From assembly GCF_002854065.1 (NCBI RefSeq), contig NZ_CP024147.1: a DNA stretch of 64,000 nucleotides. One strand, written 5' to 3'. The notes under the pieces are model-generated. The model had not been told where the DNA came from and searched no databases. It was given only the letters and a program-made list of their open reading frames with translations. The stretch comes from Escherichia coli (lineage in GTDB: Bacteria; Pseudomonadota; Gammaproteobacteria; Enterobacterales; Enterobacteriaceae). Of the stretch, positions 44,060 to 48,140 are shown piece by piece. Each line of letters begins with the position of its first letter. Position 1 is the first letter of the stretch. Both the position numbers and the translations under genes were made by a program.

Positions 44060-45262
44060 TTAACTGGCTTTTTTAATATGCGGAAGGTCGAACGCTTTGC
44101 GCAGCGCCCGAACAAACGCTTTATCGTGGCAGATAGTTTTGCCAGGGCTGTCAGAAAGTTTCGCCACCGGTTTACCGTTACACTCTACCAACTTAATCAC
44201 AATATTCAGGGGTTTTACCTGGGGGATATCGCAGGTCAGGCGAGTCCCAATACCAAAACTTAATTGCACGCGGGAAGAGAAGTGGCGGTATAGCTCAACC
44301 GCTTTGCGTAAATCCAGATTGTCAGAGAAAACCAGCGTTTTACTCTGTGGATCAATTCCCAGCTTTTCATAATGTGCAATGGCTTTTTCACCCCATTCAA
44401 CCGGGTCGCCAGAGTCATGACGCAGGCCCTGATACCGACTTGCGAACTCGACACCGAAATCACGCAGGAAAGCATCCATAGTGATGCAGTCGGTTAATGC
44501 AATGCCAAGTTGGTCGGGATACTCTTCCAGCCAAGCAGCAAGTGCAGCTCGCTGGCTGTTGGCTAGATCCGGGCTGATTTGCTGATGTGCCTGGAACCAT
44601 TCGTGTGCCTGTGTTCCCATCGGCGTGAGGGAAAGCCGACGCGCCAGATCGTAGTTGCTGGTGCCCACGAACCAGGATTCCTGTTGCAGACGCTTAACGA
44701 TGGCTTCTTGTACTTCGCGAGAAAAACGGCGACGGGTGCCAAAATCCATCAGATGGAAGCGCGACATATCAAGACCGGCGGTTAACGCCGAGAAGTCGAC
44801 TAATTTGCTTTCCAGCGTGTCGAGGGCTTGCGCAACGTCGGCCTGCGGTGAGCGATAGCGATGTACCATTTCACTGATAACCGCCAGCAAAGGAACTTCC
44901 CAGAGGATGACTTCACGCCACGGGCCGCTTAAACGAATATCCAGCTTGCCATTATCGTTGGACACGGTGACTTGTTCCGGGTTAAAGCGGAACTCGCGTA
45001 GCCAGTTAAGATAGTCGGCCTTAAAGAAAGGCAGGGCAGAAAGCCACTGATATTCATCATCCTGCAGGCGCAGGTGCTGCATCGCCTGAACCTGTTCACG
45101 AATAGCATCGGCATAAATACCCAGCAGATCGTCACCTCGGCAACGAAACTCCGCCGCGACATGCACATCGTAATAGTGATGAAACACGGCTTGCTGCATA
45201 TGCAACTTATAAGCATCTGTATCCAGCAACGAGTGCAGAACAGGAGAAGCGAATTGTGTCAT
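44060..45262 (-). CDS. pncB: nicotinate phosphoribosyltransferase
   Basis: Start at [24 protein letters not shown] (400 aa). Confidence 0.9.
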
Positions 45263-45291
45263 AGGTGCGCAGTAGCGTCCTCGTACAGGAG

Positions 45292-45309
45292 CGTTTAGTA
45301 CAATAAACA
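45292..45309 (-). promoter_or_regulatory. NadR-like palindromic operator upstream of pncB
   Basis: cGTTTAgtacaaTAAACA palindrome about 30 bp upstream of the pncB start codon. Confidence 0.4.
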
Positions 45310-45527
45310 TCTTCAGGAACTGCTGGAGTATACCTTGTTTCGCAATTTATTGAACCCCGATCACACCATATGCCACCTTTCTGGTCGATGGCATTACGCG
45401 GTGTATGTTATAAAAATGTAGCAATAAAGGCGTTTGTACCTGAAAAGATGAAGATTCTGCATAGCGCGATTTACGCAACAGGAATAGACTGAACACCAGA
45501 CTCTATAAAAGATGCTAAAGGTTATTT

Positions 45528-48140
45528 ATGACTCAACAGCCACAAGCCAAATACCGTCACGATTATCGTGCGCCGGATTACCAGATTACTGATATTGACT
45601 TGACCTTTGACCTCGACGCGCAAAAGACGGTCGTTACCGCGGTCAGCCAGGCTGTCCGTCATGGTGCATCAGATGCTCCGCTTCGTCTCAACGGCGAAGA
45701 CCTCAAACTGGTTTCTGTTCATATTAATGATGAGCCGTGGACCGCCTGGAAAGAAGAAGAGGGCGCACTGGTCATCAGTAATTTGCCGGAGCGTTTTACG
45801 CTTAAGATCATTAATGAAATAAGCCCGGCGGCGAATACGGCGCTGGAAGGGCTTTATCAGTCAGGCGATGCGCTTTGCACCCAGTGTGAAGCCGAAGGTT
45901 TCCGCCATATTACGTATTATCTCGACCGCCCGGACGTGCTGGCGCGTTTTACCACCAAAATTATTGCCGATAAAACCAAATATCCTTTCCTGCTTTCCAA
46001 CGGTAACCGCGTTGCGCAAGGCGAACTGGAAAACGGACGTCATTGGGTACAGTGGCAGGACCCGTTCCCGAAACCGTGCTACCTGTTTGCGCTGGTGGCA
46101 GGCGACTTTGATGTACTGCGCGACACCTTTACCACGCGTTCTGGTCGCGAAGTAGCACTGGAGCTGTACGTCGATCGCGGCAACCTTGATCGCGCGCCGT
46201 GGGCGATGACCTCGCTGAAAAACTCAATGAAATGGGATGAAGAACGCTTCGGCCTGGAGTATGACCTCGACATCTATATGATCGTCGCGGTGGATTTCTT
46301 CAATATGGGCGCAATGGAGAATAAGGGGCTGAATATCTTTAACTCCAAATATGTGCTGGCCCGCACCGATACCGCCACCGACAAAGATTACCTCGATATT
46401 GAACGCGTTATCGGCCATGAATATTTCCATAACTGGACCGGTAACCGAGTGACCTGCCGCGACTGGTTCCAGCTCAGCCTGAAAGAAGGTTTAACCGTCT
46501 TCCGCGATCAGGAATTCAGCTCTGACCTCGGTTCCCGCGCGGTAAACCGTATCAATAATGTGCGCACCATGCGCGGATTGCAGTTTGCGGAAGACGCCAG
46601 CCCGATGGCGCACCCAATCCGCCCGGACATGGTCATTGAGATGAACAACTTCTACACCCTGACTGTTTACGAGAAGGGCGCGGAGGTGATTCGCATGATC
46701 CACACCCTGCTTGGCGAAGAAAATTTCCAGAAAGGGATGCAGCTCTATTTCGAGCGTCATGATGGTAGCGCAGCGACCTGTGACGATTTTGTGCAGGCGA
46801 TGGAAGATGCGTCGAATGTCGATCTCTCCCATTTCCGCCGTTGGTACAGCCAGTCCGGTACGCCGGTTGTGACCGTCAAAGACGACTACAATCCGGAAAC
46901 CGAGCAGTACACCCTGACCATCAGCCAGCGCACGCCAGCCACGCCGGATCAGGCAGAAAAACAGCCGCTGCATATTCCTTTTGCCATCGAATTGTATGAC
47001 AACGAAGGCAAAGTGATCCCGTTGCAGAAAGGCGGTCATCCGGTGAATTCCGTGCTGAACGTCACCCAGGCGGAACAGACCTTTGTTTTTGATAATGTCT
47101 ACTTCCAGCCGGTGCCTGCGCTGCTGTGCGAATTCTCTGCGCCAGTGAAACTGGAATATAAGTGGAGCGATCAGCAACTGACCTTCCTGATGCGTCATGC
47201 GCGTAATGATTTCTCCCGTTGGGATGCGGCGCAAAGTTTGCTGGCAACCTACATCAAGCTGAACGTCGCCCGTCATCAGCAAGGGCAGCCGCTGTCTCTG
47301 CCGGTACATGTGGCTGACGCTTTCCGCGCGGTGCTGCTCGATGAGAAGATTGATCCGGCGCTGGCGGCAGAAATCCTGACGCTGCCTTCTGTCAATGAAA
47401 TGGCTGAACTGTTCGATATCATCGACCCGATTGCTATTGCCGAAGTACGCGAAGCACTCACTCGTACTCTGGCGACTGAACTGGCGGATGAGCTGCTGGC
47501 TATTTACAACGCGAATTACCAGAGCGAGTACCGTGTTGAGCATGAAGATATTGCAAAACGCACTCTGCGTAATGCCTGCCTGCGCTTCCTTGCTTTTGGT
47601 GAAACGCATCTGGCTGACGTGCTGGTGAGCAAGCAATACCATGAAGCAAACAATATGACCGATGCGCTGGCAGCGCTTTCTGCGGCGGTTGCCGCACAGC
47701 TGCCATGCCGTGACGCGCTGATGCAGGAGTACGACGACAAGTGGCATCAGGATGGTCTGGTCATGGATAAATGGTTTATCCTGCAAGCCACCAGCCCGGC
47801 GGCGAATGTGCTGGAGACGGTGCGCGGCCTGTTGCAGCATCGCTCATTTACCATGAGCAACCCGAACCGTATTCGTTCGTTGATTGGTGCGTTTGCGGGC
47901 AGCAACCCGGCAGCGTTCCATGCCGAAGATGGGAGCGGTTACCAGTTCCTGGTGGAAATGCTTACCGACCTGAACAGCCGTAACCCGCAGGTAGCTTCGC
48001 GCCTGATTGAGCCGCTGATTCGCCTGAAACGTTATGATGCCAAACGTCAGGAGAAAATGCGCGCGGCGCTGGAACAGTTGAAAGGGCTGGAAAATCTCTC
48101 TGGCGATCTGTACGAGAAGATCACCAAAGCACTGGCTTAA
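45528..48140 (+). CDS. pepN: aminopeptidase N (M1 family)
   Basis: 870-aa ORF with GAMEN and HEYFHNWTGN (HExxH) zinc motifs. Confidence 0.95.
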   Translation: MTQQPQAKYRHDYRAPDYQITDIDLTFDLDAQKTVVTAVSQAVRHGASDAPLRLNGEDLKLVSVHINDEPWTAWKEEEGALVISNLPERFTLKIINEISPAANTALEGLYQSGDALCTQCEAEGFRHITYYLDRPDVLARFTTKIIADKTKYPFLLSNGNRVAQGELENGRHWVQWQDPFPKPCYLFALVAGDFDVLRDTFTTRSGREVALELYVDRGNLDRAPWAMTSLKNSMKWDEERFGLEYDLDIYMIVAVDFFNMGAMENKGLNIFNSKYVLARTDTATDKDYLDIERVIGHEYFHNWTGNRVTCRDWFQLSLKEGLTVFRDQEFSSDLGSRAVNRINNVRTMRGLQFAEDASPMAHPIRPDMVIEMNNFYTLTVYEKGAEVIRMIHTLLGEENFQKGMQLYFERHDGSAATCDDFVQAMEDASNVDLSHFRRWYSQSGTPVVTVKDDYNPETEQYTLTISQRTPATPDQAEKQPLHIPFAIELYDNEGKVIPLQKGGHPVNSVLNVTQAEQTFVFDNVYFQPVPALLCEFSAPVKLEYKWSDQQLTFLMRHARNDFSRWDAAQSLLATYIKLNVARHQQGQPLSLPVHVADAFRAVLLDEKIDPALAAEILTLPSVNEMAELFDIIDPIAIAEVREALTRTLATELADELLAIYNANYQSEYRVEHEDIAKRTLRNACLRFLAFGETHLADVLVSKQYHEANNMTDALAALSAAVAAQLPCRDALMQEYDDKWHQDGLVMDKWFILQATSPAANVLETVRGLLQHRSFTMSNPNRIRSLIGAFAGSNPAAFHAEDGSGYQFLVEMLTDLNSRNPQVASRLIEPLIRLKRYDAKRQEKMRAALEQLKGLENLSGDLYEKITKALA

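Follow-up and report, generated by a model that had tools for sequence, protein, structure and literature searches.

The window, i.e., the whole 64-kb stretch of Escherichia coli DNA analyzed here, carries pncB on the minus strand, where the ATG is located at 45262, and the divergently oriented neighbor pepN on the plus strand, starting at 45528. The pncB product begins with MTQFASPV and was recognized by TIGR01514, the NCBIfam equivalog for nicotinate phosphoribosyltransferase, with 620 bits (E = 1e-186). An 18-bp palindrome, hereafter the box, lies between both genes, and the surrounding 1.6 kb match, with 100% identity, complete E. coli chromosomes in which pncB and pepN are annotated. The transcription start site (TSS) of pncB was taken from the TSS table of Kim et al. 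(2012; PMC3415461), the accessible entries of which place it at 989637 of NC_000913 on the minus strand (180 reads, 58-nt 5'UTR) and give its upstream sequence as ...TTCAATAAATTGCGAAACAAGGTATACTCCAGCAG. Window positions were obtained by subtracting 944317 from the NC_000913 coordinates, which was checked with the pepN ATG (989845, corresponding to 45528). With the TSS at 45320, the box corresponds to positions +12 to +29 of the pncB transcript. The features of the locus are as follows:

44060 to 45262, minus strand: pncB coding sequence, nicotinate phosphoribosyltransferase, 400 aa (translation, TIGR01514, RefSeq annotation)
45263 to 45320, minus strand: pncB 5'UTR of 58 nt, containing the box (mapped TSS, conservation)
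45292 to 45309, no strand assigned: putative NadR operator, 18-bp palindrome (match, matrix, conservation, published consensus)
45320, minus strand: pncB TSS, a G (accessible entries of the TSS table of Kim et al., 2012, PMC3415461)
45327 to 45332, minus strand: -10 hexamer TATACT at -12 to -7 (conserved, correct distance to the mapped TSS)
45336 to 45341, minus strand: tentative auxiliary NadR half-site GAAACA at -21 to -16, in the promoter spacer (co-occurrence with the box)
45349 to 45354, minus strand: weak -35-like TTCAAT, three of six matches, 16-nt spacer (conserved block)

For comparison, species-representative genomes were scanned with PncB, which yielded 80 Enterobacteriaceae loci and, together with the window, a set of 81. 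Every position of the -10 hexamer is identical to the window in at least 90% of these loci, and we infer that TTCAAT serves as the -35 of pncB. A consensus scan of 45200 to 45560 for promoters and terminators returned nothing; the pncB -10 is good and the -35 weak. Just upstream of the latter (about 45359 to 45366, minus strand), an invariant GTGTGATC block with a GATC Dam site is present in nearly all 81 loci. Interpretation of this block as a CRP site was rejected upon inspection by eye, as its right half disagrees and its spacing is wrong.

On the pncB strand the box reads TGTTTATTGTACTAAACG, i.e., TGTTTA-TTGTAC-TAAACG, and on the plus strand CGTTTAGTACAATAAACA. Its arms GTTTA and TAAAC form a perfect 5-bp inverted pair with one asymmetric outer position, and it spans -47 to -30 relative to the pncB ATG. 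The preliminary description had noted a near-perfect inverted repeat about 30 bp upstream of the pncB start, and the letters are indeed as described, with the proximal edge at 29 nt from the ATG. According to published work, NadR operators follow the 18-bp palindromic consensus TGTTTA-N6-TAAACA (PMC2330245, PMC2330246), with which the box agrees at 11 of the 12 specified positions, the single arm mismatch being the terminal G of TAAACG. With at most one mismatch to this consensus, the box is the only match in the 64 kb, 0.17 matches being expected from dinucleotide-preserving shuffles of the window (17 of 100 shuffles contained at least one). Allowing two mismatches, six matches were found as compared to 2.3 expected, and the box alone has fewer than two. 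When scaled from the shuffles to the 265-bp pncB-pepN intergenic region, the chance of a match with at most one mismatch is about 7e-4. Genome-wide, matches of this kind are not rare; the improbable part is the location of this one in the pncB-pepN spacer. A full-text literature search with the exact 18-mer TGTTTATTGTACTAAACG and its 17-mers on both strands returned no occurrence among the papers searched, and no RefSeq feature is annotated in the 83-bp box region of E. coli genomes.

Known NadR sites were used as a reference. In E. coli K-12, the box TGTTTAGCATATAAAACA lies upstream of nadA, and the perfect box TGTTTAGTAAATTAAACA is found at -24 to -7 from the nadB ATG, with a second, weaker box TGTTTAGCAACTGTAACA 74 bp upstream of the latter; the NadR site of Proteus niaP is TGTTTAGTATACTAAACA (PMC2330245, PMC2330246). 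From four distinct non-pncB sites of nadA, nadB and Proteus niaP a weight matrix was built, which is home-made and not curated. Orthologous nadA loci were rejected as independent training sites: the nadA box is nearly invariant across Salmonella, Citrobacter, Enterobacter, Cronobacter, Raoultella and Buttiauxella, and only one new variant was gained from seven genera. With the pncB-free matrix the pncB box scored 17.75 bits, which is the best score in the window (next-best position 14.9 bits) and is reached by 4.3% of first-order Markov null windows of equal size. Leave-one-out matrices gave 17.0-18.5 bits and returned the box as the single best window position every time, whereas the held-out known sites of nadA, nadB and niaP scored 19.7-26.9 bits, i.e., 1-9 bits above the pncB box. 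Hence, the score that might have spoken against the NadR assignment is not poor, albeit derived from a small home-made four-site matrix, and the suggested comparison with the nadA and nadB operators revealed a resemblance of the pncB box to both TGTTTAGCATATAAAACA and TGTTTAGTAAATTAAACA.

In E. coli and Salmonella, the nadB and nadA-pnuC operators share the 18-bp palindromic architecture and the arms with the pncB box and are likewise located beside a gene of NAD metabolism. On one side, the pncB box displays the extended half-site flavor TGTTTAGTA, which is shared with nadB and Proteus niaP, and the nadB box, too, is situated near the start codon and follows a likely -10. The sites differ in their arm deviations: one pncB arm ends with G (TAAACG), nadB is perfect, and nadA deviates elsewhere (AAAACA). 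They also differ in promoter placement, as the pncB box covers +12 to +29, whereas the nadA box is located at about -54 to -37 relative to the only nadA TSS found among the accessible table entries (5 reads); no TSS of nadB or of K. pneumoniae pncB was found among these entries. In seven genera, the nadA start codon is immediately preceded by a GTTAAG-N4-5-AAAACGAGA element that is conserved within variable surroundings; it bears a loose resemblance to a degenerate NadR box (four mismatches) but may simply belong to the ribosome-binding region.

The box was found at 46-47 nt from the pncB ATG in 55 of the 81 Enterobacteriaceae loci (the window and 80 fetched loci), the carriers including Escherichia, Salmonella, Citrobacter, Enterobacter, Lelliottia, Leclercia, Kluyvera, Kosakonia, Phytobacter, Pluralibacter and Pseudocitrobacter. 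None of the 55 deviates in either arm, the terminal G included, while the spacer occurs as TTGTAC, ATGTAC, TTTTAC, ATCTAC or CTGTAC, varying at three positions, and the 10-12 nt from the TSS to the box are poorly conserved. Conserved arms, a looser spacer and a variable flank are the pattern that would be expected of a protein-binding palindrome. Among 5425 E. coli genomes, 5391 have the 83-bp box region with at least 99% identity. In the remaining 26 of the 81 loci the box is absent or relocated; the genera that have lost it include Klebsiella, Raoultella, Trabulsiella, Atlantibacter, Franconibacter, Siccibacter, Mangrovibacter and Superficieibacter. This agrees with the report that pncB belongs to the NadR regulon only 'in several enterobacterial genomes', not in all (PMC5343134). 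The box is thus confined to about two thirds of the sampled genera of Enterobacteriaceae.

Part of the conservation has a different origin. The final 30 nt of the pncB leader (AAACGCTCCTGTACGAGGACGCTACTGCGCACCT; 45263 to 45292, minus strand) are near-invariant in all 81 loci, with or without the box. Even genera lacking the box have conserved the right arm and the whole sequence that follows it; part of the conservation is therefore due to another leader element, and the right arm probably ends with G rather than A because the box overlaps this conserved element. GAGGA is the only Shine-Dalgarno-like sequence of the leader, at an unusually large distance of 15-16 nt from the ATG. The conserved leader block matched no Rfam family, and its folding did not exceed background.

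Several other explanations of the box have to be weighed against a NadR operator. It might mainly be a promoter element or the site of another protein, for example the -10 of a pepN-directed promoter, which would be compatible with NadR binding. In the accessible part of the TSS table (Kim et al., 2012; PMC3415461), a minor TSS assigned to pepN is located at 45312 on the plus strand (5 reads, 216-nt leader), besides further pepN TSSs at 45421 (12 reads), 45497 and 45528, and the -10 position belonging to 45312 is occupied by TACAAT at 45299 to 45304, inside the box. However, five reads are very weak as compared to the 180 listed for pncB, no -35 was evident in the consensus scan, and the spacer base completing TACAAT varies among genera whereas the NadR arms are constant. 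We consider it very unlikely that the box serves mainly as a promoter element or for another protein; bound NadR may occlude this weak divergent promoter as well, by which the assignment of the box to NadR would not be replaced. Further downstream, the pepN leader (45430 to 45557, plus strand) showed a sub-threshold match over the full model length to the Rfam family PepN_thermometer (RF02779), with 21.3 bits as compared to a gathering score of 83 (E = 0.14).

An even less likely reading takes the box as an AT-rich inverted repeat that arose by chance and has no part in regulation. Extrapolation of the 0.17 matches per 64 kb gives about 10-12 matches with at most one mismatch per E. coli genome, 17 of 100 shuffled windows contain a match, and 4.3% of the null windows reach the matrix score. 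On the other hand, a chance match would have had to fall, at about 7e-4, within 265 bp beside one of the few genes known to be repressed by NadR, and it would have had to keep its arms invariant over many genera while the upstream flank and the spacer vary. It is extremely unlikely that the inverted repeat acts as an RNA hairpin for stability or translation of the pncB mRNA instead of as a DNA operator. The repeat is transcribed (+12 to +29) and the downstream UTR is strongly conserved, but the 78-nt leader folds no better than its shuffles (z = 0.00), the arms are unpaired in the minimum-energy fold and offer merely a 5-bp A/U-rich stem, the pncB leader has no match in Rfam, and no compensatory changes were seen, the arms being invariant. 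Finally, that the box is coding, with pncB starting at the upstream ATG at 45310, is the least likely of these readings: although this extension (ATG TTT ATT ...) is in frame with E. coli pncB and free of stops, the mapped TSS would leave a leader of only 10 nt, a 1-nt indel (CACC-ATG as compared to CACCTATG) breaks the frame in many genera, most genera have TTG in place of the upstream ATG, the alignment with the family profile begins at residue 8 of the 400-aa form, and the RefSeq start is that of the 400-aa form. The mechanical open reading frame at 44060 to 45310 (minus strand, 416 aa) comprises pncB plus 16 codons up to the ATG overlapping the box, and automatic gene callers could set the start incorrectly here.

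With respect to the NadR reading, pncB is named, in reviews and introductions, among the NadR-repressed genes in E. coli and Salmonella (PMC12421817, PMC5343134); in recent work, EMSA and ChIP with NadR are shown only for nadB and nadA-pnuC (PMC12421817). The regulator gene nadR lies outside the window; of 5426 complete E. coli genomes, all but two (5424) have it. NadR of K-12 has an HTH_3 domain at its N-terminus (residues 7-59), followed by adenylyltransferase and kinase (AAA_28) domains. Primary footprinting was reportedly described by Penfound and Foster in 1999, and the older literature on Salmonella and E. coli, like regulatory databases, presumably lists this site as the NadR box of pncB. 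The pattern that the preliminary description associated with NadR operators was borne out by the 11 of 12 consensus positions, the best matrix score in the window, the position beside a mapped TSS and the conservation across genera. Consensus, matrix score, promoter location, footprint and regulator gene are thus all as would be expected if the box were a NadR operator. We consider it very probable that NadR represses pncB, and hence nicotinate salvage, with this palindrome as its operator. A NadR operator at pncB is a kind of feature already known; what the analysis demonstrates is that a textbook-type operator can be recovered from raw sequence and that its place in the promoter can be fixed at +12 to +29 of the 58-nt leader. 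The picture of the box as a switch that would tie nicotinate salvage to the NAD level of the cell in E. coli and its close relatives is left unchanged.

A plausible mechanism can be proposed for this repression. In Enterobacterales, NadR is a trifunctional protein, both NAD repressor and enzyme, with an HTH domain at its N-terminus. As described in the literature, a dimer of NAD-bound NadR would occupy both the TGTTTA and the TAAACA arm when NAD is plentiful, and ATP would release NadR from the operator when NAD is low. Due to the position of the box at +12 to +29, bound NadR would overlap the footprint of the open complex, i.e., downstream DNA that RNA polymerase needs at this stage, which suggests steric occlusion of initiation or of promoter clearance; alternatively, NadR could act as an early roadblock to transcription. 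The lac operator O1 with LacI is a case of a downstream operator blocking initiation or clearance. Both systems would combine a dimeric HTH repressor with a palindrome in the early transcribed region that overlaps the downstream edge of the RNA polymerase footprint. However, lac O1 is centered at about +11 and the pncB box further downstream, at +20.5; LacI belongs to another protein family and follows another effector logic, NadR having NAD as corepressor and ATP as antagonist; and the steric mechanism at pncB is deduced from the position of the box. In other lineages, genes of NAD synthesis and salvage, in some of them including pncB, are repressed by NiaR, NrtR or NadQ (PMC2330245, PMC2330246). 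These operators involve other proteins, motifs and taxa and are not applicable to E. coli.

Besides the main box, a tentative NadR half-site was detected in the promoter spacer. All 55 loci carrying the box have a motif [T/G]AAAC[A/G] located 3 nt upstream of the -10, which is missing from each of the 26 box-less loci; 17 of the latter show TAATCA at this position. In E. coli the half-site is GAAACA, and in most other box-carrying genera TAAACA; its distance to the main box is 44 bp from center to center. When evaluated over 18 bp as a complete NadR box, the auxiliary site scored only 4-6 bits; this reading was rejected, and the idea of a half-site alone was kept. Its co-occurrence with the box may be due to shared ancestry (phylogenetic inertia). 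In four Enterobacter loci, a deletion of exactly 10 bp, about 50-70 nt upstream of the pncB ATG, shortens the gap from the -10 to the box to 7 nt as compared to 17 nt and leaves the distance from the box to the ATG unchanged, by which the box is brought one helical turn nearer to the promoter with its phase kept. The half-site and the phase-keeping deletion hint at a cooperative or looped NadR oligomer that might clamp the core promoter as well.

Relocation of the operator was indicated in the Klebsiella group. The nine loci of Klebsiella, Raoultella and Trabulsiella carry an insertion of about 62 nt between the TTCAAT block and the -10 and have GGTTTTGATGGAAACG at the usual position of the box. 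At the edge of the insertion, about -156 from the ATG, lies the palindrome TGTTCAATATATTAAACT with two mismatches, which scored 18.5-19.6 bits and thus as high as the E. coli pncB box. It appears that the box at +12 was swapped for TGTTCAATATATTAAACT as a relocated putative NadR operator. A joint reading, in which NadR forms an oligomer on the box and the half-site, occludes the pepN promoter and had its operator swapped in the Klebsiella group, seems unlikely to us when taken as a whole. On the comparative side, the loss of the box by lineage, its relocation in the Klebsiella group and the perfect co-occurrence of the half-site with the box are mildly new. In Enterobacter sp. Ag1, where the usual box is absent, a perfect NadR box TGTTTAGTACTCTAAACA was found 197 nt upstream of pncB (positions 1804 to 1821 of that locus), and a co-directional open reading frame of 414 aa with no assigned function takes the place of pepN upstream of pncB.
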